The position numbers and the translations under genes were made by a program. 64,000 nucleotides of DNA. It comes from Candidatus Bathyarchaeota archaeon (lineage in GTDB: Archaea; Thermoproteota; Bathyarchaeia; Bathyarchaeales; Bathycorpusculaceae). Shown here one piece after another: positions 11,661 through 63,375 of the stretch (position 1 is its first letter; each line of letters starts with the position of its first letter). The notes beneath the pieces are model-generated. The model worked only from the letters and a program-made list of their open reading frames with translations, had not been told where the DNA came from and did not search any database. The stretch is taken from positions 288,001 through 352,000 of the forward strand of contig CAWGZR010000010.1 in the NCBI GenBank assembly GCA_963827165.1, given 5' to 3'.

Positions 11661-12707
11661 ATGGCTTCTGAGAAAACCCGTCCACTCTATTCTAGTGATT
11701 TCCAGTCTTACTGCGGCAACGCCAAGAAACTGGTAGATTCGGAACTTCAAGCGCTGCTGCCAGTAGTTGCGGAGTTGAAGCTGCGGAAACAAATCGAGTA
11801 CGCCTTGCAGACCAGTGGGAAACGGCTTCGACCCACTTTGGTTCTTCTTTGTGGAGAAAGCGTTGGGGGCAATAGGGAGCGGCTTCGCAAGTTGGCTTTG
11901 GCGTTTGAGTTGCTGCATTTGGCGACGCTTGTCCACGATGACGTTTTGGACGAGGATTTGTTTCGCAGAAATTCTCTTTCGGTTTATGCGAAATGGAGCA
12001 TTAAAGACGCGATTTTGGTGGGTGACGTTTTGGCTTCGCTTTCGCTGTCTCTATGCAAGGGCTACAAGCGGGAAATCCTTAACGTGATGATAGACACGTG
12101 CATGCAGCTGTCCGACGGTGAGTACAGCGATGTTGAGTTGGCTGGAACGGGCTTAAGCGAGGATGATTATTTTGGCAAAATCAAAAAGAAATGTGCGTCG
12201 CTTTTCAGTGCAGCCTGCGAATGCGGAGGCCTTGCAGCCGATGGCTCATCTAACGTGACGGGTGCTTTGAGACTTTTCGGCGAAAACTATGGGATCGCTT
12301 ACCAGATACGGGACGACGTCTTGGATGCGGAGGAATGGGGAAACGACCTTCAACCCGACATAAACAAGTTCCGAGCAACACTTCCAATAATCCACGCCTA
12401 TCAAACCGCAAACCCAGAGAAACAGGTGCGTTTCAGAAGGCTACTTGCCGCAAATACAGCAGAAAACTTGAGCGTTTTCCTGAGGGAAGTTCAGGTTTAT
12501 TTCGAAAAAGGTTCTTTAGATTACTGCACAGGCAGAGTAGATGATTTTGTTGATAGCGCAGTTGCATGTTTGGCGCCTATTAGAGAGAGCAGACTGAAAG
12601 GTTATCTAAAAGAGATGGCAGAGGGGCTTAGAATCAAAGGTCCCGAAGTGAGCGTCGAAAAAGTTCTCTCAGAAACCCCTCGCAGACCGGTTTCGCCAAT
12701 TTACTGA
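11661..12707 (+). CDS. Polyprenyl diphosphate synthase
   Basis: GKRLRP, LVHDDVLD..RR, AYQIRDDVLD. Confidence 0.92.
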   Translation: MASEKTRPLYSSDFQSYCGNAKKLVDSELQALLPVVAELKLRKQIEYALQTSGKRLRPTLVLLCGESVGGNRERLRKLALAFELLHLATLVHDDVLDEDLFRRNSLSVYAKWSIKDAILVGDVLASLSLSLCKGYKREILNVMIDTCMQLSDGEYSDVELAGTGLSEDDYFGKIKKKCASLFSAACECGGLAADGSSNVTGALRLFGENYGIAYQIRDDVLDAEEWGNDLQPDINKFRATLPIIHAYQTANPEKQVRFRRLLAANTAENLSVFLREVQVYFEKGSLDYCTGRVDDFVDSAVACLAPIRESRLKGYLKEMAEGLRIKGPEVSVEKVLSETPRRPVSPIY

Positions 12708-16445: not shown

Positions 16446-18170
16446 CTAGTACTTCCTCGCTTTAGGTTCAAAACGGGTAATAACCACGGGTTTGTATCTT
16501 GCCTCAAGCCCGCTGGCAGAGGAAAAAGCCATGGTGTGTTTTAGCCAGGCTCCGTCGTTACGACTTGGAAAATCGTTGCGGTAATGGGCACCGCGGCTTT
16601 CCTGTCTCTGCAACGCGGAGTAGACAATAACTTCAGAAAGCTTCAACATATTAGTTAACTCCAATGCGCCTTCGAGCTCAAAGTTGAAACGTTTGCCACT
16701 ATAGCTTAACCCAACATGTGCCATCCTGCCTTGAAGCTCGCGAATTTTACCCTGCGCCTGCTCCAAACCCACCTTGTCACGGAAAACGCTGCATAACTGG
16801 GTCATGGTTCTCTGCATTTCTGCACGAATTATTGCCACACGTTCCTTTCCAGCTGAAGCCAACAGCGAATCGATTTTTGAAGAAACCATTTTCTCGGCGG
16901 CTGCGTCGAGCGGGACTTGCTGGTTCCCGGAAACATAATTCACGATATGTAAGCCTGCTCTTTTTCCGAAGACCACCAGATCAACCAGCGAGTTTGTCCC
17001 AAGCCTGTTTGCTCCATGAACGCTTACACAGGCACATTCGCCCGCTGCATACAAGCTAGGCACAATAATGGATTTCTCATCTGCAAGTACGCGCGCCTGG
17101 GCGTCGGTAGGCACGCCGCCCATCATATAGTGGCATGTTGGCGCAACGGGAATCAATGATTCACTTGCGTCTATGCCGAGGTAATTCTTAACAAATGACG
17201 TGACTTCCGAAAGTTTTTCCTGCAACTGGTCCTTTCCTAGGTGCGTTAAATCCAAGTAAACATAGTCCGACCCATCTACGCCTCTGCCCTGGGCAACCTC
17301 AGTTAAAATTGCTCTGGAAATTATGTCTCTGGGCGCCAAGTCCTTGAGCGTGGGAGCGTAACGCTCCATAAACCGTTCACCCTTGCCGTTCCGCAACACG
17401 CCGCCTTCAGCCCTTGCCGCCTCGCTGACCAATATGCCTAATCCATGTATGCCTGTTGGGTGAAACTGGACGAACTCCATATCTTCAAGAGGAACTCCGG
17501 CGTCAAAAGCCAAAGAGAAACCATCTCCTGTGGCAGCGAAAGACATCGAAGTCGTTTGGAAGATTCTACCGCAGCCGCCGGAAGCAAGCAAAACCGCTTT
17601 CGCATGGAAAACCATCGGCTCACCCGTCGCTAACTCGTACCCAGAAACGCCGCAGATTTGTCCCTCAGATTTTAAGAGCGACGTGACGAAGACTTCATTG
17701 AATATTTTTACGCCTCGAACCATGCAGTGATCGTAGAGGGTATCCATTATTACCCGTCCCGTCCTATCAGAGGCGTAGCAAGCCCGTTTGACAGGGGCTT
17801 CGCCAAAATTTTTCGTGTGACCGCCGAACCGTCTCTGCTCAATCGTTCCTTTATCATTGCGGCTGAAAGGGACGCCAAGATGTTCCAACTCAATCACGCG
17901 TTCCGGTGCCTCCCGAGCCAAAATTTCAGCTATATCCTGATCTGCCAAATAGTCGCTGCCCTTCACCGTGTCGAACATGTGCCATTCCCAGCGGTCTTCC
18001 TCCTCGTTTCCAAGAGCCGCCGCGATCCCCCCCTGGGCAGAGCCGCTGTGACTGCGGGAAGCGTACACCTTGCTGATTACAGCGATGTTGCACGTTTCAG
18101 AAGCAGTTAAGGCAGCAGTTAACCCCGCGATGCCTCCGCCAACGATTACGACGTCAAACTCGTGAATCAT
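16446..18170 (-). CDS. sdhA: Succinate dehydrogenase/fumarate reductase flavoprotein
   Basis: [11 protein letters not shown] (covalent FAD His), [29 protein letters not shown]. Confidence 0.96.
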
Positions 18171-19453
18171 GTTTTTCCAGCCTTTTCATCGAGAACTAGG
18201 ATTTCCCTGCCAATATCTTCAAGGGAATCGCAGCAGGTCATAGCCATTGCCATGCGCAAATCGCTCTTAACGTAGTTGAGGTACATTGCTACGGCTTCGG
18301 GTCCGCCTGCAAGGCTCATCCACGCAAGCGGTCTGCCTATCAAAGCTACATCCGCGCCTAACGCCAGGATTTTCAAAACGTCAAAACCTGTTCTCACCGC
18401 GCCATCAGCCATAATTGTAATTTTTCTTTTGAACTCGTCCACGATTTCGGGAAGGACTTCTGCTACGCCTTTTCCGCAGTCCATTACTCGGCCTCCGTGA
18501 TTGCTGACGTCTAGCGCTTTTGCACCCGAATCGACAACTTTGCCCGCATCCTCTGCATTCATGATTCCCTTGTAGATTACGGGTTTTTCTGTAGAATCGA
18601 CCAGTTCTTTGAGATCGCCCTCGCTTTTGCGGTAAAGCGGCTTGCCCCTCAGCGCCCAATTAGTGGAGCCGTATCCGTCCAAATCAACCCCGATAGCCAC
18701 GACGTCGGCTTGTTCACACCGCTTAAACAGGGTCAAAAGACGATCTTGAGATTGAGGCTTGAAAACAGGAATGCCCCAACCGCCGAGTCGGCCGATAACA
18801 TCTATGCCCGGATGGTCTGGCGCGTCGACTGTGTTGCCGCTTAACCCGACGGTACCTGCTAGCTTAGCGCCTTCAACCATGCCACGCTGGAATTCCTCCT
18901 CGCTCAAGGCGCCATTCATACTAATCAATGTCCCGCTGAAACTTGACGCCAAAACGGGTAAAACAATTTTGTTTCCCAGAAAATTTGTTTCAAAGTTTGG
19001 CTCGAGATGGTCTTTGATGACACGCATTTTCAGCTTATATCGGGATAGGGCTTGGAAGTTTGCGGTCCATGTTTTGCCTTGCCCAGCGCCACCGAACCCG
19101 ATTGGTTTGCCGTACTTCATGCCCTGGCAGAGTCTGTCAGGGTCTCCGTCACACACCTTGTTTACAGCACAGATTCTTGAAAGCTGCTTTCTGGCGATGT
19201 CTCGGTAGTACGTGATGTCTTTTGAGGGTTTTTCATTGGGCGGTGGGAAGTTTCTTTCGTAATTTGCCCTTACTTGAACATATTGTTGTTCGCTGATTTC
19301 TTTGAGGTTCCCTTTCCAATGACCGCAGACAGGGCAGCGCCAAGCGTTTGAAATTTCCGCAAGGTTCGAACCCGGCGGCAACTCCGCTCCTACGTCGCCT
19401 TTTTCCACGTCAAACGTAAAGCTACGGCAAAACCCACACACAAACTTCAACAA
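18167..19453 (-). CDS. Rubredoxin domain fused to FMN-dependent alpha-hydroxy-acid oxidase/dehydrogenase
   Basis: N-terminal CGFC...WRCPVCG; core [27 protein letters not shown]. Confidence 0.9.
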
Positions 19454-25226: not shown

Positions 25227-25365
25227 GCGCCAACTGGCAAGTTGTCAATATCTGTTCAGTTGAGTTCAAGCGCCAATTCGGATTCCAAAAGATTTATCTT
25301 TAAACCTAAACAGACTATTAGTTAATTGCCAAGTCCTGAGCAGTTTTTTGCGCGAGCCGTTTTAT

Positions 25366-26325
25366 ATGAGCCAAAATAACACTAGAAAAATCAGTCCTGA
25401 AGATCTAAAGCTGTTCGATGGGTCAAACGGGAGACCTCTTTATCTTGTTTTCAAGGGCAAAGTCTACGATTTATCGACAAGCCAACTTTGGCTTGAAGGC
25501 AAACACATGGGCATGCACACCCGAACCGACGACTTAGCCGAAGCGATAAAAACCGCGCCTCACGGCGAAGACAACGTTTTCAGATTTCCCGTTATTGGCG
25601 AATTGTTAGAACCCACCCTTCAAGCTCCTGCAGCAGCCCCGATGATGGAGAAACCCTTGGAAGCGAAGGTTCAGCCATCGCCTGTTCCAGCTCAGCCAGC
25701 GAGGATGGAGAGGCGCACTTTTCTCAAGCTGGCGGCCGCGGCGGGTGGAGCAATCACGATTGCGGCTTTGTTGTCTACCCTAAAAGCAGGAACTTTCGTT
25801 CCGCCTCCAAGCTCAACTGCAGAGTGGCCAGTCGTCACTGTCACAAACATAAGCAAACTTTCAAACCTCACACCAGTCGTCTTCTACTACCCCTTAACAA
25901 GCACCCCTAACTATCTTGTCAAATTAGGAGTTGCAGCCACGGGCGGCATTGGGCCAGAAAAGGACATTGTGGCTTTCAGCGCAATTTGCCAGCATTTAGG
26001 ATGCGAATATGGCTTCGTACCTCCGGGAGGCTCACCGCCCTGCAACGCAGCTTACAAGGCTTCAATGCCTATGGGCTACTGCTGCTGTCACGGCTCTCAA
26101 TACGATTTCATCCATGGCGCAAAAGTAATCGGCGGTCCCGCTCCCCGACCAGTGCCCATGGTTCAATTGCAGCTAAACTCATCCACGGGGGACATAAGCG
26201 CGGTTGGGATGCAGGCACCTACGATTTTTGGGCATGGCCCGCCTGGAACCACTGATCCCGCGTCGGTTATGCAGTATGATTTGCAGGGTGGAGATTTGGT
26301 GACGCAATCCACAGTTTTGGGATGA
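25366..26325 (+). CDS. Cytochrome b5-like domain + internal Tat anchor + Rieske [2Fe-2S] protein
   Basis: KGKVYD..W.EGKHMGMH..APHG (b5-like); MERRTFLK + hydrophobic helix; CQHLGC and CCCHGSQYD boxes; GPAPRP. Confidence 0.9.
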   Translation: MSQNNTRKISPEDLKLFDGSNGRPLYLVFKGKVYDLSTSQLWLEGKHMGMHTRTDDLAEAIKTAPHGEDNVFRFPVIGELLEPTLQAPAAAPMMEKPLEAKVQPSPVPAQPARMERRTFLKLAAAAGGAITIAALLSTLKAGTFVPPPSSTAEWPVVTVTNISKLSNLTPVVFYYPLTSTPNYLVKLGVAATGGIGPEKDIVAFSAICQHLGCEYGFVPPGGSPPCNAAYKASMPMGYCCCHGSQYDFIHGAKVIGGPAPRPVPMVQLQLNSSTGDISAVGMQAPTIFGHGPPGTTDPASVMQYDLQGGDLVTQSTVLG

Positions 26326-27857
26326 GAGATATGGGCGAAGAAACTGAGAAGAAGACGGCTTATGACAGGCTTGTCGACTGGTTTGACGTGAAATTCGGTT
26401 TTGCCAAGACACCGCTTAAGCCGATTCCAGATTTCACGATGAACCCGATTTACTGGCTTGGTTTACTCTTGGCGGTGACTTTCGGGTTGCAGGCCCTAAC
26501 AGGAATATTTATGCTTCTCTACTACGTCCCCACACCCGCCCAAGCATACTCTTCAACAGCATCCATCATCAGCTCTGTGCCTCTTGGCTCACTCGTCGAA
26601 ACCTTTCACCTATACACCGCCTATGCCATGATTCTTTTGACGTTTCTTCATTTAGTTCGCAACTTTTTCGGCAGCGCGCATAAAGGAAACAGGGACTTGA
26701 TGTGGCTTGTCGGAATCGTATTGGCCACGGTGGTAATCGGCTTCGGCGTGACAGGCTACCTTTTACCGTGGACAGTGATTTCCAAATCTGCAAGCGACGT
26801 CGCCATCGGATTCCTCAACTTCTTCCCCGTTGGCATAGCGAACCTTGGAAAATTCGTGGCAGTAGGCTCAGGAAGCGACGCCTCGGAATTAACGACTTTT
26901 CTACATATCCACACCGTTTTTCTTCCGTTGGCGCTGATTGCGCTTTTGGGATTGAAGATTTACATGTACGAAGTGCATGGCCCAATCTACGTGTCAGCAT
27001 ATGGGAAACCTGGAAAAGGCAAATACTATAGTTGGTTCCCAAAAATCTTCCTCTACTTCGTCATGCTTGCAGCTGCGTATGTTGCGATTTTGCTGGCGGC
27101 AGCGTCTCTTTTCCCTCTATCTTTAGCCCCCGCGTATTCAGCCGCAACCGCAGGCGCATACGTAGTGCAGCCCGATTGGTACCTGCTTTGGGTTTATCAA
27201 CTATTGAAAATCCAGCTTTTCGAAGGCTCCGCAGCAGCTTACGTGATAGCCGCGTTGATTGCTTTCGGAGTGATTCTTTTCCTCATGCCTTTTTACGATA
27301 GGAGCAAACGAAGAAACCTCAGCCAACGACCAGTTTACTCCACCATTGGTGCTGTTCTGATAATTGAGCTTATCACTTTGACTATATGGGGATACTTAAC
27401 ACCTGGGCAAATAATTCCAGACTATCAAGCACTCGCAGTTTTAGGCGGAGCAGCCGTGGTAACCATCGCCGCCGTCTGGGCGGTTTATCGGCTTAGACGA
27501 AAAACAAACATGGCAACAGTGATACCTGTGCAAACGAAAACCAACTCTTCCGCCGCCAACATATCCATAGCAAGCCAGTCCTTTGCAGTGCAAGCCTCCG
27601 ACGAGATGGCTCGGACAAAGAAGGAGCAAATCAAACGCGCCGGCGAAAGCCTGTTTAGCCCATTCACCGCTGTCTTCGCGGTTTTCTTGGCGGTTGCTTC
27701 GGTTTCTTTGGCATCAGCCGTAAACATGCTGCCCACCATTTCAGCGAATGCATCTTTTTTCACCTTAGCTTTAATGGCTTTCGCAGTTTCGTCTTTTTTC
27801 ATGATTCGAATGCTTCGAAAGTTTGTTTTAGCGTATGAAGGAGCGGTGGCCAAATGA
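26322..27857 (+). CDS. Cytochrome b of a Rieske/cytb complex (unsplit, extra C-terminal helices)
   Basis: Q..TG...YYVP, H96/H110, TGYLLPW, H197, PDWY Qo motif, PFYDRS; ATGA overlap with the Rieske gene. Confidence 0.93.
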   Translation: MRDMGEETEKKTAYDRLVDWFDVKFGFAKTPLKPIPDFTMNPIYWLGLLLAVTFGLQALTGIFMLLYYVPTPAQAYSSTASIISSVPLGSLVETFHLYTAYAMILLTFLHLVRNFFGSAHKGNRDLMWLVGIVLATVVIGFGVTGYLLPWTVISKSASDVAIGFLNFFPVGIANLGKFVAVGSGSDASELTTFLHIHTVFLPLALIALLGLKIYMYEVHGPIYVSAYGKPGKGKYYSWFPKIFLYFVMLAAAYVAILLAAASLFPLSLAPAYSAATAGAYVVQPDWYLLWVYQLLKIQLFEGSAAAYVIAALIAFGVILFLMPFYDRSKRRNLSQRPVYSTIGAVLIIELITLTIWGYLTPGQIIPDYQALAVLGGAAVVTIAAVWAVYRLRRKTNMATVIPVQTKTNSSAANISIASQSFAVQASDEMARTKKEQIKRAGESLFSPFTAVFAVFLAVASVSLASAVNMLPTISANASFFTLALMAFAVSSFFMIRMLRKFVLAYEGAVAK

Positions 27858-28510
27858 TGAAGAGCGACTTTGATTCCTTACGGGTTACTACGTATTTCCT
27901 TTTGGCTTTTCTAGTCGTGGTCGGAGTTTCTATTTGGCTTCTGAATCTGATAAGCCAGCAAAGAGTCTTCGGTTTCTTGATGAGCGCCGAATTCGTCGCG
28001 TTCGCTATGCTCGTCTACCTTTACTACATGGAGGACCCAGCAGTCGCTAAGAAACTGTTGACCTCAGGGTTTGTTGCCATAGGAATTCTTGTTATTTTAT
28101 CTGGTGCCGTATTAGCCGGAGTCGGTACCCCTGTGGCGCTGCCTAAGCCCAACGTTTCGATGACCCTCTATGCTGGGGAGGTTTCTCCTACGTTGTTTGG
28201 GTTCGGGAACAGCGCAACCGCCATAACTTCGCCGGGTCCAATCCTTAACTTCACGGTGGGCGATGTCGTGAACATGACGATTTTTAACGCGGGAACAATG
28301 CCGCATAACTGGGCGATAGTCGACTCCGACAGCACTTCAGGCAAAGTTTTGTTCGGCGCAAAAATCGACAGCGGCTTAGTTCCTATACCTGTCAATGAAA
28401 CAGCATCGGTTGCTTTCAGAGTCACCAAAGCAGGGGACTACTTCTACATTTGTCAAGTTCCAGGGCACGTCCAGCTTGGCATGTGGGGAAGCGTGGTAGT
28501 GAATCCGTGA
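27854..28510 (+). CDS. Membrane-anchored type-1 copper cupredoxin (sulfocyanin/rusticyanin-like)
   Basis: Three N-terminal TM helices; MPHNW...YICQVPGHVQLGM copper ligands. Confidence 0.88.
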   Translation: MMKSDFDSLRVTTYFLLAFLVVVGVSIWLLNLISQQRVFGFLMSAEFVAFAMLVYLYYMEDPAVAKKLLTSGFVAIGILVILSGAVLAGVGTPVALPKPNVSMTLYAGEVSPTLFGFGNSATAITSPGPILNFTVGDVVNMTIFNAGTMPHNWAIVDSDSTSGKVLFGAKIDSGLVPIPVNETASVAFRVTKAGDYFYICQVPGHVQLGMWGSVVVNP

Positions 28511-29283
28511 TACGCAAAAACGCAGAAGAACTCTTCGTTTCATTTATGTTTTTGTTTGCAAGTTTACTCACGGGTCTAATGAGCTTCTTGGCATTTGGCT
28601 TTGTAATTGCAAAGCAAAAAGCCGAAAGAAAAAGGGAACCCCAAAAAGCTGTTGGTTTTCTTGCAGACAAGAATAGAGCGCTGAATTTTTACAGAATATT
28701 TTCTGTAGCCTACGACACTTTGAATCCGTCCCTGTACACCGTTGCCATGCGAAGCGAAATGGTAAATCAAATCGGAAACGGCGCGAACCTGCGAGTGCTT
28801 GACGTTGGATGCGGAACAGGCTACACGACCTCAGGAGTTTTGAGGCGAGGAGACATTGCGGAAGTGGTTGGGTTGGATATGAACCCTGTGCAGCTTAAAA
28901 GAGCCGTCAAGAACCTGCGCTTCGAAATGGACAGGGCTTCGATTTCAAGAGGCGACGCGGACAACCTGCCGTTTGAAGACGGCACTTTTGACGCCGTAAT
29001 TTCGGTCGGCGCCATCGAGTATTTTCCTGACCCCGAAAGAACAATAAAGGAGCTTTCAAGAGTCGCAAAGCCCGGTGGAACCGTTATTGTTGGTGGTCCC
29101 GAAGCAGGATGGTTCAGCAAGCTTGCGTTAAACAAGGTTTTTTATACGCCTTCTGCACAAGAAATGGAGACTTTTTTTCGCAAAGCTGACCTCGCCAATG
29201 TGAAATCGCGCTTGACAGGGATGAAAACTTTTTTCGCAACAAACAGATATGTTGTTTTTGCCGTTGGAAAGAAACCAGCATAG
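28507..29283 (+). CDS. UbiE/MenG-like SAM methyltransferase (start uncertain: GTG 28507 or ATG 28546)
   Basis: VLDVGCGTG, GDADNLPF, GAIEYFPDP, RVAKPGG; FYRIFSVAYD resembles the VTE3/haloarchaeal MenG type; N-terminal TM helix. Confidence 0.8.
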   Translation: MIRKNAEELFVSFMFLFASLLTGLMSFLAFGFVIAKQKAERKREPQKAVGFLADKNRALNFYRIFSVAYDTLNPSLYTVAMRSEMVNQIGNGANLRVLDVGCGTGYTTSGVLRRGDIAEVVGLDMNPVQLKRAVKNLRFEMDRASISRGDADNLPFEDGTFDAVISVGAIEYFPDPERTIKELSRVAKPGGTVIVGGPEAGWFSKLALNKVFYTPSAQEMETFFRKADLANVKSRLTGMKTFFATNRYVVFAVGKKPA

Positions 29284-29300
29284 ACACAAAAAAAATTGGT

Positions 29301-30332
29301 TTAAGCTCTTTTCCGCGAGGCGAGTAGAGCCCAGGCTACAGGGGCATATGCGGCTGCTAGCAATGACAATATGAAAGCAAGTTGCAACATGTTAGCCGCA
29401 TTTAAGAAGCCTGCAATTGCGTACCCTGCGATTAAGCCGAAGCTGGTGACGCTATGTGCAAGTATCATGTCAAGGTTGGCTGGAGCCATCAGCCGTGGAT
29501 TGTCCTTGTGAGCCCGAACGACAGAGATGGAGTGAATAACAAGCGGGATGGATAGCAAAGCGGCAAGCGTGTAGAGCGGTATGAATCTGAGCAAAGCGGA
29601 AACGGCGATTACAGCGTATGTGCATATCCAACTTGCTATGTACAGTTTGACTCCAGCGTCTTTACCATATCTTGCGACAAGCGTAAGTTTCCCAGCCGCT
29701 CTATCCTCCAAAATATCAGGAATCTCATTAATCACAATCATAGAGAACAACATTATCCCCAGAGGTAACGTCGCCAAAAACGCCTGCAACGTCACCGTTT
29801 GCGCCTCAACATAAAAAGCGCCTAAACCGATAACTGACCCAAAATTCACTAACATCACAATCTCGCCTAGTCCGTGGTGACCAAAACTAATGGGCGGAGC
29901 CGTGTAGAACACGGCGCAGAACACGCCCAATAACCCGAAGGCCAAGATAGGCAAACCTCGGGTTAAGGTAAGATAGAACCCGGCGGCCAAAGTTATCAGG
30001 TAGCAGAGCGTAAAAGCCTTAAACATACTTTTAGGCGCTAAAAGCCCACTGCTAAGAGTAGCGCTACCGCCGGAATATGGGTTCTTCTCGCCCGGCGCAA
30101 GCTTGTCAACGCTGTGCTTGTAATCGTAGTAGTCGTCGGTCATGTTTAAGGCGATATGATTGATTATGATAGCGACTAGCACGAGAAGAAAGTAAAACGG
30201 AATAAAACCTCTGTTAGTTGCCCAACTGACTAAACCCCCAAGGACCGCGGGGAAGATGCTTGGAGGCACAAAATGGTAGCGGAAGGCTTGCCACCACACT
30301 TTTGCTTTACTTGCTTTTAACGTACTAGTCAT
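29301..30332 (-). CDS. menA: 1,4-dihydroxy-2-naphthoate prenyltransferase (UbiA family)
   Basis: NMTDDYYDY..VD, PYSGGS, YTAPP, NEIPD..EDRAAGKLTL. Confidence 0.85.
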   Translation of the reverse strand: MTSTLKASKAKVWWQAFRYHFVPPSIFPAVLGGLVSWATNRGFIPFYFLLVLVAIIINHIALNMTDDYYDYKHSVDKLAPGEKNPYSGGSATLSSGLLAPKSMFKAFTLCYLITLAAGFYLTLTRGLPILAFGLLGVFCAVFYTAPPISFGHHGLGEIVMLVNFGSVIGLGAFYVEAQTVTLQAFLATLPLGIMLFSMIVINEIPDILEDRAAGKLTLVARYGKDAGVKLYIASWICTYAVIAVSALLRFIPLYTLAALLSIPLVIHSISVVRAHKDNPRLMAPANLDMILAHSVTSFGLIAGYAIAGFLNAANMLQLAFILSLLAAAYAPVAWALLASRKRA

Positions 30333-43892: not shown

Positions 43893-44269
43893 AAGGTATC
43901 GATTTACTTAAAAAATATTTTGATATGCGTTCTTTCAAGTATTAGTCGATGATTAATCACATCAAATCTCGGTTTGACATCCTTGCAATTCAAATATCGC
44001 TACTACTAAAATTTTGTTCAACCAACCCTAAAAAAAGTTAGCTCTTTTTGGAAAAAGGTTGAGGTTAGAATAATAGGTGTTCGCTCGATTCAAGTCACGC
44101 ATTTTTTGCAGGGTTAAGGTATACTTTATGAAATAACAATAACCTTCACCTACATCTCGATGCCAACGCTAGACTAAGAACCAAAAAAATACTCAACTTC
44201 AGGGAAAAAGTATGCAAACGATTTTTAAAGAATTTAAATCAGAGTGGAGTAAGTCTAAGTGACTCAAGG

Positions 44270-45025
44270 ATGCAGACGACCTTCAAGTCTCAAACAAAGC
44301 GGATTATCGTAGATTTGATTGGCATCTTGTTGCGAGCTAAACGACTCGACAGAGAAGCTTTAGCTTCAATTTACCTTTCGGGAGTTGGCATTGAAATTGG
44401 TGCTTTACATAATCCTTTAGGAGTGCCGCCTTCTGCGAAAGTGCGTTACGTTGACCGAATGCCCTTGTCAGACCTGCGTAAGCAATATCCAGAATTGAAA
44501 TCTTACAAACTTGTAAACGTAGATATTATCGATGATGGCGAGACATTAAGAACTGTTGGTGATGCAACCCAGGATTTTGTTATAGCAAATCACTTTTTGG
44601 AGCATTGCGAGAATCCGATTAATGCAGTCGTTAATTTTATCAGGATCCTTCGTGAAGGTGGTATACTTTATCTTAGCGTTCCTGACAAGCGATACACTTT
44701 CGATAAAAAACGCCAAGTAACTTCTCTTGATCACCTAATTCATGACTATGAAGAAGGACCAACTTCCTCACGCGAAGAGCATTTCCGAGATTGGGTGGTG
44801 AACGTTGAGCAGAAAAGAAACAAAGCAGAAATTCAGCATCGAATAAATGAATTGAATTCTATTAACTACAGTATTCATTATCACGTTTGGACTCAGAACG
44901 ATATGTTTAATTTTTTTGCAATGTTGAATGATCGCATGAATCTGCCTATTGAGACTCAGTTGTTCTTCAAGCATAACATGGAAGACATCTTCATCATTAA
45001 GAAACAATCTCAGAATTTGCTTTAG
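44270..45025 (+). CDS. Class I SAM-dependent methyltransferase
   Basis: GIEIGALHNP, DFVIANHFLEH, GGILYLSVPDKRYTFD. Confidence 0.85.
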   Translation: MQTTFKSQTKRIIVDLIGILLRAKRLDREALASIYLSGVGIEIGALHNPLGVPPSAKVRYVDRMPLSDLRKQYPELKSYKLVNVDIIDDGETLRTVGDATQDFVIANHFLEHCENPINAVVNFIRILREGGILYLSVPDKRYTFDKKRQVTSLDHLIHDYEEGPTSSREEHFRDWVVNVEQKRNKAEIQHRINELNSINYSIHYHVWTQNDMFNFFAMLNDRMNLPIETQLFFKHNMEDIFIIKKQSQNLL

Positions 45026-45441
45026 AGGTCCATTATCAGCAGACGCGACCTTTCTAAAGCTTGGAATACGATTATTCATAGTTTAATACTTGTTACCCTT
45101 TGATCCGATTCTCTGAATACAGTTTCTCTTTCGTTATCGAGTTTGGCAAACAGGCAGACTTATTGGTTGATTAGGGTCCAAAATTCTTTGTCTTTTGCAA
45201 ATACTATTTTGCTCTTTACAATTGTTTGACAATTTGAGTGAAACGCTAACGCCCTTAGCGCTTGAATGAGTGTTCATTTTTTTAACATGTGTACACATCA
45301 AATTTGCCATTCTTTGAATTCTATATCCGAATAATTGCTTTATTCCAAAAAATGGCCAAACGCCAGTGATATTTTGGCACTATTAAGCATCGGCCCGCTA
45401 CTTCTACGATCCAAAAAGCGCACACATTTCAATTAATGATC

Positions 45442-46463
45442 TATGGGTGTGCAGAATTTAAGTTGCTTCCCAATTATGTTTTAGTATGGAAGCCTGTGAT
45501 GTTGTCAGGCTTTTCGTCAACAAAGCAATAGTTTCTGCAGAACCAAAACGACGGGGAAATCCAGGATACGGACGCCTAAGAGCACTCAGAGTTCTCGTAT
45601 ACGCTAGACTTAAAGGATTAGAGAACGACACCCGCATAGTTGAACATCTAAAGAAGCATTCATACGCTGCTATAACCCTTGGGTTGTGCAAAGTGCCTGA
45701 TAGAACCACTGTTGGAAGATGGTGGAGACGCTATCTCAGCCTACTTGAAGAGACTTTTGGAAAAATATCAAGCATGCTTCAGCTCATGTCGCCAACCACT
45801 TTTCTAATTGTTGATTCAACACCGCTAGTGGATCTCTACGATATGGAAGCCGGCTGGGGTCACACAAGCAGAGGAAAATTCAGAGGCTTCAAACTTCATG
45901 CAGCCGTAAACCAGTTAGGATTGCCGCTAAGAGCAGTCGTCACGCCGGGGAACCGTTATGATTCGCCGTTTCTTCCCAAGCTGATTGCAGATTTGGAGGC
46001 AGATTACGTTTTAGCTGACGCGGGCTACGACTCGAAGACAAACTACCGAGCCGTCAAGGACATTGATGTTGAGCCGGTTATTGCTTCTAACCCTAGACGA
46101 GGGAAACGCAAGAAGATCAAGCATGCCCAGCTGTTGAAGACTAGGCGTTATGTGGTTGAGCAGTTTAACGGGCACATTAAAGCTAACGTTTTGAAGCAAT
46201 GCTGGATAAGGCCAAGGGGTTTGGTGAAGAAAGCGGCGATGGTTATGGCTGCCTTGATAAGTTTTGATGCAGAAGCAATGAAATCTTTGGTTCTTGGCGA
46301 AGAAAGTCTAAAGCACGTGAGCAAGTACTGGGCTTGATCCAATACTCTAAAGGTTATGGAGCCTGTGAGACACCAACCGATGGCATTTCAGGATTCCAGC
46401 CCAGACCTGCTCATTAGATTAGTAGTTAACAAAACTATAAAAAACGAATTGTGCACAGGTCTA
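45442..46463 (+). mobile_element. Insertion sequence of 1022 bp (IS5/IS982-like DDE) with 17-bp imperfect TIRs and 7-bp TSD
   Basis: Left end TATGGGTGTGCAGAATT, right end AATTGTGCACAGGTCTA; AATGATC repeated at 45435-41 and 46464-70. Confidence 0.85.
45486..46337 (+). CDS. DDE transposase (DDE_Tnp_1-like)
   Basis: IVDST, GFKLH, LADAGYD, RYVVEQFN. Confidence 0.93.
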   Translation: MEACDVVRLFVNKAIVSAEPKRRGNPGYGRLRALRVLVYARLKGLENDTRIVEHLKKHSYAAITLGLCKVPDRTTVGRWWRRYLSLLEETFGKISSMLQLMSPTTFLIVDSTPLVDLYDMEAGWGHTSRGKFRGFKLHAAVNQLGLPLRAVVTPGNRYDSPFLPKLIADLEADYVLADAGYDSKTNYRAVKDIDVEPVIASNPRRGKRKKIKHAQLLKTRRYVVEQFNGHIKANVLKQCWIRPRGLVKKAAMVMAALISFDAEAMKSLVLGEESLKHVSKYWA

Positions 46464-46605
46464 AATGATCATTAATTGGATAAATTTAAATTAGTTATAC
46501 AATACAATTTATTAATTGATAAAATACTTCTCAGATATAACAAATCGAGCATTATGCAACCGATTTATAAATTCGAAAACATAGGCGCCAGTAATATATG
46601 ATTCA

Positions 46606-47452
46606 CTAAATCTTGGTTGCGACAATAATATCTTGATAACTTAGAAAGTCTATTCTTCCAGGCCATGATCCATAATGAAGGGGTTTGTTAACATTTAGGT
46701 TGTTATTTGCAAAAAGATCTATGATAAACGATTCATCGTAGCATACAGCTGCCTCTGGTGAATTGCAATCTGCCAACAAGTATTTTCCACTTTTATACTC
46801 GAAGATTATCGAACTTTTTTTTGCTTCGATAAGTTTCAGCACTTCATTATTTAAGATGAAGAAAGTAATTAAGCATCGTCCGCCTTTTTTAAGTACTCTC
46901 GCGATTTCAGAAAAATAATTTTTCATGTCATTCGGCATCATATGAGTAAATACTGATCCTAGGAACAGAAAATTCGAAACATTCGTTTTCAAATGGAAAT
47001 TTGAAACGTGAAGGATGATGTTTCCCTTTGGGATTATAGCTTCTATTAAAAACATCAACAAATTGGAAATGAAAATTCGGATATTTTGAGGATATGTTTT
47101 TTTCGCACCATCGAACGCCTTTTTTTGTAATATCAAACCCTTCGTATCGCCCTGTAGAATCCAAGTATTTTGTTAAGGGTATAGCTTTACGACCTATACC
47201 ACTCCCAACATCTAGAACAACCTCGTTTGGCTTAAGATGACCAATCGTTATAAAATACCTAAGAAATTCTTCGCCATTCTGCTTAAAAAGTTCAGCATCT
47301 TGTGGACCGTCGAACATAAGCCTTGTTGGGGGAATTGTCGGATCTTTTTTACCTAATAAGAAATCAAATGTGTCCTCAACATAAAATATGGCGTTTCCTT
47401 TTGTTAACATTGAACTCAAGATTATCTTCTTTATTTGAAGGGATGTTTTCAT
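46606..47452 (-). CDS. Class I SAM-dependent methyltransferase, one frameshift near 46975
   Basis: VLDVGSGIGR in ORF 46928..47452; SVFTHM..EIARVLKKGG in ORF 46606..47136. Confidence 0.85.
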
Positions 47453-47785
47453 TGTTGAGCCTTAGCAATTTTTACTCGAATATACAATTAATAAAATTTA
47501 AGGTTTGCCTATTTCTTTGCTGCATTTCTCTTTATGAAGGTTGAAACGATTTTTTCACTCGAAGCTCTAGAAAATCTTGCGCTTTGAATTACGTTTGAAG
47601 TATTGGAGTTCTTCAACAAGTTGAAAAAACTTCCTATCAATAGAGAGATTTCACATCATGAAAATAGTTATTTAAAAGAACTGTTGTTTCAGGTATATTA
47701 TAGCTCTCATTATAGGGAGACGAAGAATTAATGATTGCCGAAGATTTATTGACTGGAAACGTATAATTGAAAAATAATTTGATCT

Positions 47786-48826
47786 TCACTTGAGTACGTT
47801 CATGTTATCCATGACCCATTTTTGCAATTTTGTTATTCCTTTCTCTGGAGTAATTTTTGGAGTCCAGTTTAGAAGCTTATCAGCTTTCGAGATATTTGAA
47901 ATATATACTTTTTGATCAGATTTTCGCCAATCAGCATATGATATATTAGGGGTTACGGAAGTAAGTTCTTTCAACAAATCAATTAATTCTAACAAGGATA
48001 TTGATTTTTCTGGCCCCCCGCCCATGTTGAATACTCCATGTTTTAATTTACTTTCGATGAAAGCATTGTAAGCTTCCACTAAATCTATCACATTCAAGAT
48101 ATCTCTAACTTGTTTCCCGTCACCATAAATTGTTATGGGCTTATGGGTTAATGTCGCTATTACAAACCATGCAACCCACCCTTGATCTTCAACACCTAAT
48201 TGTCTTTCGCCATAAATACAGCTCATTCTAAATACGCCGGTTTTCAATCCATAAGTGTGAGCGTAATCTTGCACATACAGGTCTGCAGCAAGCTTTGAAC
48301 AACCATATGGACTGTGACCGCAGAGATCTATGGAAAATGTCTCAGGTATACCATTAACGTATTTTTCGTCAGCAAAGCAGTAACGTTTTTCCATTTCGTG
48401 CACTGGTATACCATTGACATTTTCTCCATAAACCTTGTTTGTGCTACAATAAACGAGGGCTGCATCGTTCACCCGCGCAGCTTCAAGAACATTAAAAGTC
48501 CCGATAGTATTAGTTTCAAAATCTGTTCTGGGATCGTTTAGCGACGTGGTAACAGCGGTTTGAGCGGCGGTATGAATAATAACTTTTACACCTTTTGAGA
48601 CAAGTTTTACCGAATTGTAATTTCTTGTGTCACCCTTAATTAATTCCATTTGGGGATAACGTTTCTTTAAATAGTCCCAATTGTAATGTTCGTCACCCGA
48701 ACTTTTGCCCAAGAGTTTGGCTCTGGAAAGGTTATCAAATATTATAACATCAGTGCCTTTTTTTGCATAATATTCTGCCACATGGGAACCAATAAATCCG
48801 GCTCCACCTGTCACCAGTATTTTTAT
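47786..48826 (-). CDS. CDP-paratose 2-epimerase-like NDP-sugar epimerase
   Basis: (I)KILVTGGAGFIG, AQTAVTTS, STNKVYG, SPYGCSK, FRMSCIYG, EDQGWV. Confidence 0.88.
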   Translation of the reverse strand: MKILVTGGAGFIGSHVAEYYAKKGTDVIIFDNLSRAKLLGKSSGDEHYNWDYLKKRYPQMELIKGDTRNYNSVKLVSKGVKVIIHTAAQTAVTTSLNDPRTDFETNTIGTFNVLEAARVNDAALVYCSTNKVYGENVNGIPVHEMEKRYCFADEKYVNGIPETFSIDLCGHSPYGCSKLAADLYVQDYAHTYGLKTGVFRMSCIYGERQLGVEDQGWVAWFVIATLTHKPITIYGDGKQVRDILNVIDLVEAYNAFIESKLKHGVFNMGGGPEKSISLLELIDLLKELTSVTPNISYADWRKSDQKVYISNISKADKLLNWTPKITPEKGITKLQKWVMDNMNVLK

Positions 48827-48881
48827 GATTAACCGCCTCTTTTCTTGGTTATGCTCGCATCTGCCATTTAAGCATTTTCCG

Positions 48882-50130
48882 TTAAGATTTTTGGCATAAT
48901 TTCGCGGATGTGATTATTTCGTCATATATTCTTTCGACCTTAGCAATAATAGTCGACCAAGTGTAGTTAGTAATAACTTTATTTCGCCCATTATTACCCA
49001 TCTTCTCTGCCAAAACGGGGTTATCCATCAGAATTTGTATTTTACTCACGATATCGGCGACATCGCCAAATTGGACTAAGAATCCGTCTACACCATCGCT
49101 TATGACAGCTGGCACACCACCGCTTCTTGCGCCAATAACTGGTTTACGTTGATACCATGCTTCCAAATAGACTATTCCAAAAGCATCAGATCGAGAGGGC
49201 ATAACTAAAACGTCACATGCATCAAAAACGTCTTTTTTCTCCGTTCCTGAAGTAAAAGGTAAATTTAAGAGAAACGATTTTTTGCGCATTTTACTAACTG
49301 CTTGGATCCATCCAGCGGTCGCTAAACCCATGGCTACAAGTACAACATCATTTCTTTTCTTTGCCAATTCTTCTACTGCGTTAAGCAAATGCATGGCCCC
49401 CTTATTGTAATCTTTCGATCCGGCAAAAAGAACCAGATATTTACCTTCTAGACCAAATTTTCGTCTAAACCGTTCACCCGAACAACCGACCGATTCCTTT
49501 TCATCCATGCCCATTGGCACAATTCGAATTCTTTCTCGAGAGATACCTAAATTGACTAGTATGTCTCGTTCAATGTAGGTGCACGCGAAAACAGCGTTAG
49601 CGTTTCTAAGCATGTTTATGAGTTCAGGGTTATAATACCCCTGTAAGCTAGGAGGAAAAAAAGGAGTTACTATGAAAGGAGTTCTTGACTTGCGGCAAGA
49701 TTTGGCTGCCAACCATGTGTGAACCAGCGGGAGAGCAGTTGCATGGACAAGCTCATAGTTATTGTCATTTTGTGCCAAATGAAAATATAGGCCCAATATG
49801 AAGGGGTCCGTCGCGAAAAGTTCGATGACGCTATGCTTTAAACTCGGAACTGTTTTAGCGATAAAAGTATTCAAAGCATACAGGGGAATCTCAATGTGAT
49901 AATCAATAGGGAACCGCGATACATCCACCCCATTTATTCTTTCAAAAGACCGCTTTGATAATTGACCTGACCAAGGCTTATACAAGGCAACTAGATCTTA
50001 ACGCGTTAGAAGTCAACACCGTTACTTTATGTTCCTTTTCGCTCAATCCCTCAGATAAATGTTGCATATATACTTCTGAGCCTGTGAGCAGACCCGGCAG
50101 GTACCTTTGAACCACGTGAGCTACACGCAT
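48882..50130 (-). CDS. GT4 glycosyltransferase, one frameshift near 49998
   Basis: N-terminus MRVAHVVQRYLP in another frame; C-terminal PSRSDAFGIVYLEAW...GGVPAVI. Confidence 0.88.
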
Positions 50131-50363
50131 CAGATCATACGTCCGACTTATTAATGATTTTTAAGCTGCAACAAAGCAGATATTCATCCCACCGTTTAAT
50201 ATAGATTTACGGTTGAGTAAGATTTGATGACGTTTTACCCATGGACGTAAAAAAAAGTTTTGGTTTTTTTAGTCTGCATTCTGTAAATTTGGTGAATCAC
50301 TTAAGATTCTCATACAGTTTTGAATTAATTATTAATATAAAAAATGTACACAAATAGCGTAAA

Positions 50364-52359
50364 CTATTTTCTTGTTTTACAGCTTTTGCATAATAATGGG
50401 AAACTAAGTACGGCAACAATAAAAGGTATAATGACAGCGAAGAACACTGGCACAAAATAGTAGCCTGAAGTCTTCTCCGCAAGCACCATATGATTAAGTC
50501 TAATTGTTAAACCGTAGTTCCCATCGTTGAATTTTCCGAAGGAAATAGAATTTGGAGTAGCTGAAGTGAATGAATAATTTCTAAACTGCAAAATACTGTT
50601 TTCAGAGGTAGTCAATAGGGTTAAGTCAAGTTCACTTGAATTTAAAGGCAGTTCTATCGTAGTTCCTGATTGGTTAGTTAAGAAAAAAGATTTGTTCACT
50701 TGTGTTTGAGCCAATGAAGTATTTGAATAATCGCCTATTGTCACATTTATTCCAAGTGCTATATTATTTGTTTTCAACAATTCATATTGGCCAGGATGGT
50801 TTGCTTGAAGATTAAAAGTAAGACTAATGTTCAGATTCTGCGAATTTAAAGAGCGCTGAAACATTATTGGTTCAGACTGGTTGTAGAATACAACCGAGCT
50901 AGCAGCTATCAGGTAAGTAAGTTTCATTGGTGCGGCATCGAAAGCTGTATAAGTTGGGAAAAGGTCCAAAGGAAAATTCTGCTTGTCGGAAACAACAATC
51001 GGTTGAGAATACAATTCGTTAAAGGCAAAACCTCCAAGCATCGTTAACACAATTGCCATTGCCAAGATCACATTCTTCCTCCGGGTAACACCAAGATTCA
51101 AGCGATGCAAAGTCACAAGTGCGCTTTCATTTAGAGACTTTGCCGTCATTTGCACTCTATTAAATCTAGCAAGACAAAAGATTGCCGTAAATATTATGGA
51201 TCCAAGCAGGGCCAAATTAAAGATAACTAACCATGATGATAAGCCTGCAAAGTCGGTATAAATACGATGTTTTCATGAAATATCGGATATGCAAAGTAAA
51301 ATGGTCCTGCCTGCACACCATTTCCTATGATCAGATTTATGAAAAATAAGGCAACGTAAGTCGGTAAACTGGATAATAGTAATTTCTTGGTGACCGAAAG
51401 TTTGGATTTTGACGTTATGGCGAGAAAAACGCCAATCGGATAAAGCCACAAGAAGTAATCGGGCAAGGGCACTACAGATGTGTAAATGAGACAGTAGTAA
51501 GATGAAGAACATTGCTGCGGATTCTGCATATTTTCAGCATTCGGAACAAAACCGGTATGGCTATTCCAAGTAGACCCAGAAAAACGATATAATAGATTTG
51601 CGGAATTGTAAACCAGTACTGTAAGCCTTCCACGCCTGAATTATTGATAACCGACCCAGATAGAGCGCCGACATAATTGAACAGCCCACCCCTGAAAAAT
51701 ATTAACTCGACCACGAATAAAGCCGCACTTTCAGCTACAGCTACTAAAAGAGCAGAAAACTTTTGCTTTAATGTAGTCGACTCGTAAATGATAAGAACGG
51801 GTATTAATATTAGCGAATACCGATAAATGAAGGCACTAATCATAATCGGGAAGAACCCAATCAAGTACCGCTTTATTGAGCTTGTTCCAAAATCGACATA
51901 CCTTAGCAGAAAATAGCCCATTGTAAAGAAAAAGACCGGCAAAATATCGACCTGCGCCCAAATGTAATTAATATAGAGGATCCCGGGGTTTAGAAGAGAA
52001 AATATTAACACAGCATCAGCGTAAGATGGCTTTACCTTTTGAGTAATACGATAGAGCAGAAATGCCGTAAGAAGAGTAAAGAAGAAAAGAATTAGCTTCA
52101 ACACAACAACTGAAGCATATAGGTTGTAAGAGGAAAAAATATACGAAAAAAACATTGGGACAAAGAACATAAACGAAAAAAAGCCGCCAGGCCAAGGATT
52201 ATTAGCCATTGGGGGAACTGAACTTGTTATACTTCCACCCAGCGAAATCCAGCTCCTCATATTTGAGGAGTCATAAGCCGGAAGAAATACTAGTGCGATG
52301 TTGACTGCAATGGCCACGAACAATAGGGCAATAGTTCTGTTTTTCGTGGAGACATTCAC
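50364..52359 (-). CDS. Multi-pass membrane protein (possible GT-C fold), split into 3 ORFs by frameshifts
   Basis: Adjacent hydrophobic ORFs 51472..52359, 51227..51529 and 50364..51215; LLNPG..YI..IWAQVD motif. Confidence 0.6.
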
Positions 52360-53264
52360 CCTTTATAAAAAGTCGATATTTCCTTTCTTAAGATTCTGGG
52401 CAGGACTAGATGGTGAACCAAAATCAGAAACAATCGGAATCCCAAATTCTTTATTCCTGAATGCTTCATTGACCATAATGCATTTGTCTTTTGATTGCTG
52501 TAACGTGAAAGCGAATACACAGAATAAGAAGTAGACAAAGTATTTGATTTATTCAGTCTAAGACTCAATAGAGAAGATGATTTGATATAGGTATTTATCA
52601 ATTTGTTTCGAAGATTGTGATTATCTAAAGAGCGCCCGAATGCTTGAAAAACCAGTACTATGTTTAATCTAATTACTAAATTGCCACTCTGTTTGACCCT
52701 ACGAGTAAACTTGTAATCAGCCCAATCAACAAAGAAATCAGGATTATATCCACCAGAATGATTAAAAACGTCCACATTTGTAAAAATGCCAGATGTGATG
52801 ACTGAGGCAATAGTGGAATAATCGCCTTTCAAGCCAATTCTTGAGTCAAGGTACGCAGAATCGTTAGTCACAATTGGAGCTAGTATTCCGACTGGCGTCT
52901 TATGCGCCTTTAGTTCTTGCCATGATTCTTTTGCTATGCTTATCCAACGAGGATCAAATTGAGCGTCATCATCAAAAAAATAAAGCCAAAATACACCAAG
53001 ATTTTGTGCCAATGCTACCGCTTTATTGTAAGCTTTCGAAATTCCCAAGTTAGTGTCATTTTTCAAAAAAAAGAATTTAGGATGCTTGCTACAGAAATCA
53101 GACAAATAAAGAATAGTATCAGAATCCGAACTATTATCACAAATAATCACGTGATCAACAAGTTCTGCTGCCTGCTCGAAAATTTTCAAATTGGGAATCT
53201 TATTATAGGTTATGGTTATGATAGCACTTTTGGTTGAAATAGCAGGTTTTATATTTGCGGGCAA
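52356..53264 (-). CDS. GT2 glycosyltransferase (rhamnosyltransferase-like)
   Basis: ICDNSS, NLGISKAYN, FFDDD, ITSG, FFVDWAD. Confidence 0.85.
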   Translation of the reverse strand: MPANIKPAISTKSAIITITYNKIPNLKIFEQAAELVDHVIICDNSSDSDTILYLSDFCSKHPKFFFLKNDTNLGISKAYNKAVALAQNLGVFWLYFFDDDAQFDPRWISIAKESWQELKAHKTPVGILAPIVTNDSAYLDSRIGLKGDYSTIASVITSGIFTNVDVFNHSGGYNPDFFVDWADYKFTRRVKQSGNLVIRLNIVLVFQAFGRSLDNHNLRNKLINTYIKSSSLLSLRLNKSNTLSTSYSVYSLSRYSNQKTNALWSMKHSGIKNLGFRLFLILVHHLVLPRILRKEISTFYKG

Positions 53265-53279
53265 GTATCACTCCTCCTT

Positions 53280-54349: not shown

Positions 54350-54682
54350 TACTGAATCGTCTACCGTTGTTACTCAAATTCAAAGTCATGGGTAATGTCA
54401 TCCTTTCATCTTTCTAATAAATTCTTGTATAAAAAACTAAGAATAGCTACCTTTTTAAGACCAACAGGCAATGATCAAATCAAGAAAAAATTCATCAATA
54501 GATAATTAAAAAGTTGGAATAAAAAGGATTTTATTAAATTCCTTAAGACCTAATAGATTCTACGAATTACGGAGTTTTCTACCGATTGAGTCGGGTTGGT
54601 TTTACTCGCAAATATTTTTAGGACTTCTTAAATATATGATGGCAGAGAAATTGTTCAAACGAATTAGCAAGAAACGACTTTG

Positions 54683-55546: not shown

Positions 55547-55786
55547 TTAAACATGCTCTTGTAAGTTGAGTACGCTTTGACGATCCATACGAACAAAGCA
55601 TAGACATAACATTTTGCTGAACCTTATTCCTAAAGACAGCAATTTCAAACTGATGTGACTTCTCGGACATTACTGCTTCTAAACCCATTGAACTATCATA
55701 ACATCCGATTTTGGTATTTAATACTTGTGCACAAAGGCAGATACACACAGGTTGAACGTCAATGTTATACTAGTGCTGACAAGTCA

Positions 55787-63373: not shown

Positions 63374-63375
63374 AC

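Follow-up and report, generated by a model that had tools for sequence, protein, structure and literature searches.

That both b hemes are ligated by pairs of histidines is taken as an invariable hallmark of cytochrome bc complexes, and the question addressed here is what becomes of the second of these hemes when one of its histidines is a lysine. Such a gene is found in a stretch of 64,000 nucleotides from a Candidatus Bathyarchaeota archaeon (assembly GCA_963827165.1, contig CAWGZR010000010.1, positions 288,001 to 352,000 of the forward strand), the whole of which is called the window. It encodes a cytochrome b and stands between the genes of a Rieske protein and a copper protein. An earlier note on the window had placed lysine 212 at a ligand position of heme bH and proposed that this heme is His/Lys-ligated, pentacoordinate or absent, with electrons passing to or from a fused b5 domain instead of through a classical Q cycle. 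From the sequences collected, and by analogy with a bacterial mutant, we consider it rather probable that the protein holds a natural His-Lys ligated, probably low-spin and raised-potential heme bH within a functional quinol:copper-protein oxidoreductase.

Typically, each of the two heme-bearing helices of a cytochrome b contributes two histidines. In the translated open reading frame (ORF) histidines occur at positions 96, 110, 120, 195, 197 and 219, and the helix B pair H96 and H110, 14 positions apart and conserved, is present as the earlier note had read it; on helix D, H197 is present and the second site is K212. The AAG codon of this lysine stands where the note had put it, two substitutions away from a histidine codon (CAY), the helix D string that it quoted corresponds exactly to residues 196-220, and the PDWY motif of the quinol oxidation (Qo) site and the extra C-terminal helices are likewise present.

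The equivalence of K212 with the heme bH ligand was drawn from two sets of phmmer alignments. Against all Protein Data Bank chains the best match of the window protein is cytochrome b6 (6e-27), and the alignment with Chlamydomonas b6 (1q90_B) ends with query residue 212 opposite residue 202 of the chain; His202 of b6 is the axial ligand of heme bh (PMC3112540; statements on this and the other cited papers refer to the passages drawn on here). When residues 180-365 were searched alone, K212 fell opposite the bH-ligand histidine of chicken and pig bc1, which is the residue preceding the L-F-L-H-E stretch, with the expected one-residue gap in helix D. The spacing of 15 positions between H197 and K212 is that between His187 and His202 of b6. 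The position assigned by the earlier note was thus upheld by both b6 and bc1.

There is no other histidine at 198-218 in the window protein, and among the 79 loci in which the site could be assessed just three have one in that interval, at position 214, two residues from the lysine, where by helix geometry it faces away from the heme. This substitution of histidine for tyrosine two residues past the lysine (K-L/M-H-M-F-E-V-H-G) was seen at loci L049 and L063 (Ca. Methanodesulfokora) and L058 (a Thermoprotei metagenome-assembled genome, MAG) and in proteins P0128 and P0131. H219 was considered as a substitute ligand and rejected: it lies seven residues further on, at the end of helix D, and of the 151 cluster representatives 71 share its His-Gly motif, position 212 being the usual histidine in most of these. 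Lysine was not met in canonical complexes, the residue being histidine in all 112 His-type representatives and in the aligned solved structures. That a normal histidine is the real ligand, and the lysine an artefact of misalignment, a pseudogene or a sequencing error, is therefore practically negligible as an explanation: the ORF is intact, an identical 511-aa protein (P0004) exists in the public collection, the b6 and bc1 alignments agree independently, and lysine was met, with both of its codons, in every one of the 79 independent genomes.

To describe how widespread the lysine is, four sets of sequences were compiled, namely the best 120 homologues from 90%-identity clusters together with the query (47-100% identity); 80 loci from GTDB species genomes, 79 of which cover site 212; the best 150 representatives of 50%-identity clusters plus the query, taken from an exhaustive HMMER search of 1.84 billion representatives; and a pool of 488 collected proteins that is biased to the Lys group, two further searches having been seeded from it. 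Position 212 is lysine in 121/121 close homologues and in 79/79 assessable loci, encoded by AAG in 50 and by AAA in 29, so the lysine is neither a peculiarity of the window gene nor a matter of chance. By record title the 80 loci comprise 36 Bathyarchaeota, 23 Nitrososphaerota, 15 unclassified archaea, 2 Korarchaeia (Methanodesulfokora), 1 Thermoprotei and 3 bacterial-labelled MAGs, the closest genomes being MAGs labelled Candidatus Bathyarchaeia or Bathyarchaeota at 60-86% identity. The archaeal operons in bacterial-labelled MAGs (L018, L035 and L076; Limnocylindrales, 'bacterium') probably reflect mis-binning or mislabelling.

Among the 151 representatives of the 50%-cluster search the column reads histidine in 112, lysine in 20, valine in 1 and tyrosine in 1, with 17 gapped fragments; the lysine rows are concentrated among the top-scoring matches, and the best-scoring His-type row (P0140) is 38% identical. 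In the pooled set it reads lysine in 315, histidine in 154, valine in 1, tyrosine in 1 and a gap in 17, lysine accounting for 315 of the 471 homologues with a residue in the column in this set with its bias. The named distant Lys-type matches of the two protein searches bore MAG labels only (Nitrososphaerota, Caldarchaeales, Thermoprotei, Thaumarchaeota), with no cultured Nitrosopumilus or Nitrososphaera among them. In several MAGs there is a pair of Lys-type Rieske/cytochrome b operons, one of them with PEWY or a longer form, the other with PDWY (L065/L072, on the same contig with ranges overlapping by ~3.7 kb; L023/L042, L033/L050, L034/L060, L037/L046, L038/L045 and L069/L071).

A tree of 140 rows, thinned to below 62% identity and computed by a quick IQ-TREE search under LG+G4 with the site-212 column excluded, placed 30/30 Lys rows within one 44-row archaeal clade (support 99), the other 14 rows of which are His-type with a PPWF or PDWY motif. 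Of the Lys rows, 28 form one group (support 87) and the position of two is unresolved; three state changes are needed on the tree while well-supported branches force only one, and a single origin of the lysine is possible. On these alignments the lysine is an old, clade-wide trait that is fixed in a large archaeal clade. Residues W45, Y101, E217, W238 and Y245 separate the Lys group from bacterial sequences, but they recur in 11-14 of the 14 archaeal His-type rows, and from the aligned rows they are markers of the clade and not companions of the lysine. E217 was rejected for this reason as a change coupled to the lysine, glutamate standing also in 13/14 archaeal His-type sequences. Four columns other than K212 are specific to the Lys group, namely M127, T151, K155 and E349.

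Whether the heme is kept can be judged from the rest of its pocket. Of the 308 Lys-type sequences that have a residue in both columns, 307 retain H110, the histidine presumed to pair with K212. Four glycines of helices A and C (G47, G61, G131 and G145), which we take to correspond to the heme-packing glycines of bc1, are likewise retained in 78-79 of 79 loci; retention of heme bH is argued from these two observations. In an alignment of 16 sequences with 49-79% identity to the window protein (A1), K212, Y214, E217, H219, G220, W238, F239 and P240 are invariant. Helix D at its N-side end and helix E at its start are thus unchanged, which speaks for a functional quinone reduction (Qi) region. 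Such conservation of the pocket is hard to reconcile, on sequence grounds, with a bH site left vacant from the base of the clade onwards.

A lysine at this site has an experimental precedent. In the bc1 complex of Rhodobacter capsulatus, the H212K variant carries lysine at the same helix D ligand and holds a low-spin His-Lys heme bH; it appeared spontaneously when the heme-bH knock-out H212N reverted to photosynthetic competence (Pintscher et al. 2016, PMC4807273). The gz value moved from 3.44 to 3.22/3.15 and the midpoint potential at pH 7 from +80 mV in the wild type to +130 mV, i.e. by +50 mV, while steady-state turnover was 121 against 149 s-1 in the wild type; the enzyme is functional in vivo with a working Q cycle, and following a flash the electron is found to a greater extent on bH and to a lesser extent on the Qi semiquinone (PMC4807273). 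A natural Lys or Met ligand of a heme in an integral membrane protein had not come to the notice of these authors, who expected such cases to exist (PMC4807273). The window protein, with lysine at the helix D site and the helix B histidine kept, has the make-up of such a natural counterpart. Of the three options of the earlier note, His/Lys ligation is well supported by analogy, agreeing with the conservation of H110 and of the helix A/C glycines and with the behaviour of the mutant, whereas the pentacoordinate and absent forms rank lower.

Some observations weigh against a lysine-bound heme in this clade. The precedent is a ubiquinone bc1, in which 13 and not 14 residues separate the helix D ligands. 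Kao and Hunte (2014, PMC4122944) described cytochromes b of Pyrobaculum without the second bH histidine and read them as a genus-specific loss of the heme, with no comparable statement on Thaumarchaeota in the passages drawn on, and in chloroplast b6 the exchange of the same histidine for glutamine (His202Gln) removes hemes bh and ci, growth being still possible (PMC3112540). Lastly, the Lys-type representative P0138 of the 50%-cluster set combines asparagine at the H110 site and a degenerate Qo motif with K212; it probably belongs to a lineage that truly lost heme bH, and judged from its sequence, heme loss does occur on a Lys-type background. Extended to the whole clade, these observations would mean that only heme bL and the Qo site remain, that no Q cycle runs and that K212 stabilises an empty pocket, the state of the Chlamydomonas QiKO strain and the one proposed for Pyrobaculum. 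We regard clade-wide loss as decidedly unlikely, since a near-invariant H110 and four glycines are unexpected in a pocket empty since the base of a multi-class archaeal clade, the Qi-side motif is invariant, and lysine itself is a competent ligand at this site in H212K.

The side chain of lysine is flexible and of high pKa, and to ligate iron inside the membrane it must be deprotonated. This chemistry speaks for a heme bH that is five-coordinate and high-spin on H110 alone, K212 not being bound to the iron and instead standing protonated over the open face or paired with a propionate or with bound water or hydroxide. Such a heme would be akin to heme ci of b6f, and direct binding of small ligands or quinone to it would be conceivable. 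The conserved H110 and pocket glycines fit any heme-containing state, and the N-side residues of the archaeal clade (E217, W45, Y245) give a local environment unlike that of bc1; however, these three residues also occur in 13, 14 and 11 of the 14 archaeal His-type rows respectively, so that they are not adaptations to the lysine. The sole experimental test of a lysine here kept the heme low-spin and His-Lys ligated (PMC4807273), and the 315 Lys sequences, with never an Arg, Gln, Met or Asn, fit a specific bond better than a space filler. The five-coordinate state is accordingly held to be unlikely, although less so than loss of the heme.

The favoured explanation, a His-Lys ligated heme bH, may then be set out as follows. 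The gene product would be the cytochrome b of a three-gene Rieske/cytochrome b/blue-copper quinol oxidoreductase of an aerobic Bathyarchaeia-like archaeon. Heme bL would have its usual ligation by H96 and H197, and heme bH would be kept in a six-coordinate low-spin form with H110 of helix B and the amine of K212 of helix D as axial ligands. By analogy with R. capsulatus H212K, its midpoint potential may be raised by some tens of mV, which would widen the gap from bL to bH and shift the Qi equilibrium between bH and semiquinone towards reduced heme, the Q cycle and the electron transfer across the membrane presumably remaining intact. What the sequences and the model show is the alignment of K212 with the bH ligand, its conservation across the clade, the kept partner ligand and helix A/C glycines, and the canonical fold; the Lys-iron bond, together with the spin state, the change in potential and an operating Q cycle, is inferred. 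No published description of a natural lysine at the bH ligand was found in a literature search that did not extend to subscription-only papers, and term look-ups in PMC3509893, PMC5600118 and the first 300,000 characters of PMC7908018 returned no mention of one.

The second proposal of the earlier note concerned a fused b5 domain. A cytochrome b5-type fusion does exist in the operon, but it is with the upstream Rieske gene and not with cytochrome b. Its domain matches solved cytb5M structures (phmmer, 6vz6_A at 3.5e-15 and 6nzx_A at 2.5e-14), while the Pfam Cyt-b5 score of 16.3 bits is under the cut-off of 23.7; the heme ligands of these two solved archaeal cytb5M proteins are H42 and H61 (bioRxiv 10.1101/2021.11.30.470528), and in the fused domain both axial histidines are invariant in 19/19 aligned fused Rieske proteins. 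No published description of a b5M-Rieske fusion turned up, no search having been aimed at such a fusion. The part of a Rieske protein ahead of the twin-arginine motif and the anchor stays cytoplasmic. Since the b5M domain lies ahead of both (twin-arginine codons at ~25711-25716, linker of ~35 residues), it would be cytoplasmic, on the heme bH side, and coupling of b5M to bH is topologically possible. From its sequence the fusion would add a cytoplasmic heme to the Rieske/cytochrome b complex.

If the lysine served this domain, the two should occur together, which is the check that the earlier note itself had named, and in most loci they do not. Lysine is present in 79/79 loci and b5 is fused to Rieske in 19/80, all of them in the closest Bathyarchaeia group (at L015 as a 166-residue ORF only); a separate b5 ORF is found at two loci, L002 and L022. 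No b5 match was met in 57 loci, all Lys-type and with a Rieske gene 5' of cytochrome b, and two loci are cut by contig ends. The lysine is thus much older than the fusion. A model in which the lysine re-tunes or opens bH for electron exchange with the Rieske-fused b5 heme, replacing the classical Q cycle, has in its favour that a true cytb5M, complete with its two axial histidines, is fused, that the topology of Rieske proteins should set it on the bH/Qi side, and that 19/19 fusions stand on a Lys-type background. Yet lysine occurs also in Korarchaeia, Thermoprotei and Nitrososphaerota MAGs and so long predates the fusion that it cannot have evolved for it, and a tether of ~35 residues does not imply a fixed place beside bH; the model is in our estimation very improbable. 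Under the His-Lys explanation the lysine would be independent of the fusion, which would be a later addition in the Bathyarchaeia subgroup of the window.

Structure prediction speaks neither for nor against binding: the complex of cytochrome b residues 1-400, b5M residues 1-85 and three hemes returned a score of 0.00 and a mark of 0.32. The AlphaFold2 model of the b5M-Rieske protein, built on a 19-row alignment, is poor, with a predicted local distance difference test (pLDDT) value of 58.7 and residues 83-151 below 50. One further combination is highly doubtful and is offered as speculation, namely that K212 is hemilabile or non-bonding, leaving bH ligand-accessible or redox-switchable and nearer to heme ci than to a bis-His wire, and that in the Bathyarchaeia subgroup the b5M heme, tethered to the Rieske anchor, passes electrons from a cytoplasmic donor to bH/Qi. 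If this were true, the complex would have a second, N-side electron entry, a respiratory analogue of cyclic electron flow.

With reference to Table 1, cytochrome b is the middle of three genes that overlap by a few bases, the Rieske stop overlapping its start and its stop overlapping the start of the copper protein, at whose N-terminus hydrophobic helices are found. The Rieske gene lies directly upstream of cytochrome b in 78/80 loci, the remaining two being cut by contig ends, and a copper protein homologue lies just 3' of it in 65/80; in distant loci this homologue has only ~85-95 residues. The copper protein is likely to be the electron acceptor that replaces cytochrome c1 or f. The second Rieske cluster motif reads C-H-G-S-Q-Y (approx. 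26050-26090), with a Ser/Tyr pair of the kind that we take as typical of high-potential Rieske proteins, and yet cytochrome b has PDWY as its Qo motif. The operon is adjoined by a UbiE-like methyltransferase (plus strand) and a UbiA-family prenyltransferase (minus strand) at 28450-30332, and a polyprenyl synthetase lies at 11661-12707; these genes probably serve quinone biosynthesis. In bacteria PDWY has been linked to low-potential Rieske proteins and menaquinone (Kao and Hunte, PMC4122944).

Table 1 Features of the Rieske/cytochrome b/copper protein operon (window positions; counts refer to aligned close homologues)
Feature	Position	Strand	Evidence or remark
Rieske gene: N-terminal cytb5M (MAPR-like), Pro/Ala-rich linker, twin-arginine motif, transmembrane anchor, Rieske domain	25348..26325	+	Rieske 1.1e-4; TAT_signal; weak Cyt-b5
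cytb5M heme domain, axial His H53 and H72 (ORF translated from 25348)	25390..25605	+	
Cytochrome b gene, 511 aa, unsplit	26322..27857	+	PF00033, PF13631, PF00032; AlphaFold2; Foldseek
H96, codon CAC, helix B ligand of heme bL	26607..26609	+	His in 116/116 ungapped rows
H110, codon CAT, helix B ligand of heme bH, presumed partner of K212	26649..26651	+	
H197, codon CAC, helix D ligand of heme bL	26910..26912	+	His in 120/120 ungapped rows
K212, codon AAG, helix D axial-His position of heme bH (bn)	26955..26957	+	
H219, codon CAT, in conserved E-V-H-G motif, N-side end of helix D	26976..26978	+	121/121
Qo motif PDWY, residues 284-287	27171..27182	+	P/D/W/Y in 121/117/121/121 of 121 rows
C-terminal extension past the eight canonical helices	27519..27854	+	Linker (low confidence), helices 426-442, 447-468, 477-510; hydropathy segments
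Membrane-anchored type-1 copper protein (plastocyanin/sulfocyanin-like)	27854..28510	+	Copper-bind 1.8e-7; SoxE 3.4e-5

The cytochrome b itself is of full length. Pfam recognised the N-terminal domain (Cytochrome_B, E 1.3e-26, 94 bits against a cut-off of 27.2) and the C-terminal domain (Cytochrom_B_C, E 1.1e-11, 45.3 bits against 20.7) in one ORF, without the b6f-type split after helix D, and ~10 transmembrane helices were predicted. The AlphaFold2 model, from a 149-row alignment, has a pLDDT of 91 and a predicted template modelling score of 0.81; its fold is canonical, with eight helices and three at the C-terminus, and helix D is unbroken from residue 186 to 219. A Foldseek search with this model found bc1/bcc cytochromes b as the best matches (E ~1e-12, target-normalised TM-score 0.54-0.78). 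In the C-terminal extension, after the low-confidence linker, two extra transmembrane helices are predicted.

Elsewhere the window holds archaeal ribosomal protein genes, succinate dehydrogenase, citrate synthase and succinyl-CoA synthetase. An FMN-dependent dehydrogenase with an N-terminal rubredoxin domain (18167-19453, minus strand) is the immediate upstream neighbour of the flavoprotein and iron-sulfur genes of succinate dehydrogenase. An ORF at 1402-2280 with a CAP12/Pycsar-type TIR effector domain (E 1.9e-14) is a candidate defence gene, and Ku, an ATP-dependent ligase with a LigD phosphoesterase domain and a LigD primase-polymerase at 61085-63900 make up a complete archaeal set for non-homologous end joining. 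The stretch from 44000 to 56000 is low in GC (0.365-0.39 against 0.42-0.49 in most other 4-kb windows) and carries glycosyltransferases and a DDE transposase (45486-46337), possibly as an acquired surface-glycan island.

If the His-Lys explanation is true, the Lys clade is the natural case that the authors of H212K predicted (PMC4807273). It spans abundant archaea of soil, peat and hot springs, including MAGs labelled Nitrososphaerales, and offers a natural test of how far the potential gap between bL and bH may shift. The heme-loss reading of Pyrobaculum deserves re-examination in this light, and in annotation an archaeal cytochrome b without the fourth histidine ought not to be scored as defective.

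Overall, four known systems bear comparison with the window protein. R. capsulatus H212K is alike in having lysine for the helix D bH histidine with the helix B histidine kept; it is a spontaneous revertant in an engineered strain, a ubiquinone bc1 with cytochrome c1 and bc1-type spacing, whereas in the window clade the lysine is natural and fixed, the spacing is b6-type and the partner is a copper protein. The archaeal His-type cytochromes b with PPWF or PDWY motifs fall in the same clade with support 99, share W45, Y101, E217, W238 and Y245, and are likewise unsplit and without the heme ci cysteine, but have histidine at the ligand site in 14/14. PPWF is the motif given for Sulfolobus SoxC/SoxN (PMC4122944), and the assignment of His-type rows to Sulfolobales rests on the motif alone. 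The Pyrobaculum cytochrome b is also archaeal and lacks the same histidine, with the difference that it was described as a genus-specific heme loss (PMC4122944); it may belong to the Lys-type group. Cytochrome b6 of b6f, finally, is the best sequence match of solved structure and shares the 15-position ligand spacing on helix D. It is split from subunit IV and has His202 and a heme ci on Cys35, whereas the window protein is unsplit and, opposite the cysteine of the b6 F-Y-C-L-G stretch of helix A in the phmmer alignment, has tryptophan (W45), the residue found in that column in 320 of the 488 collected sequences.

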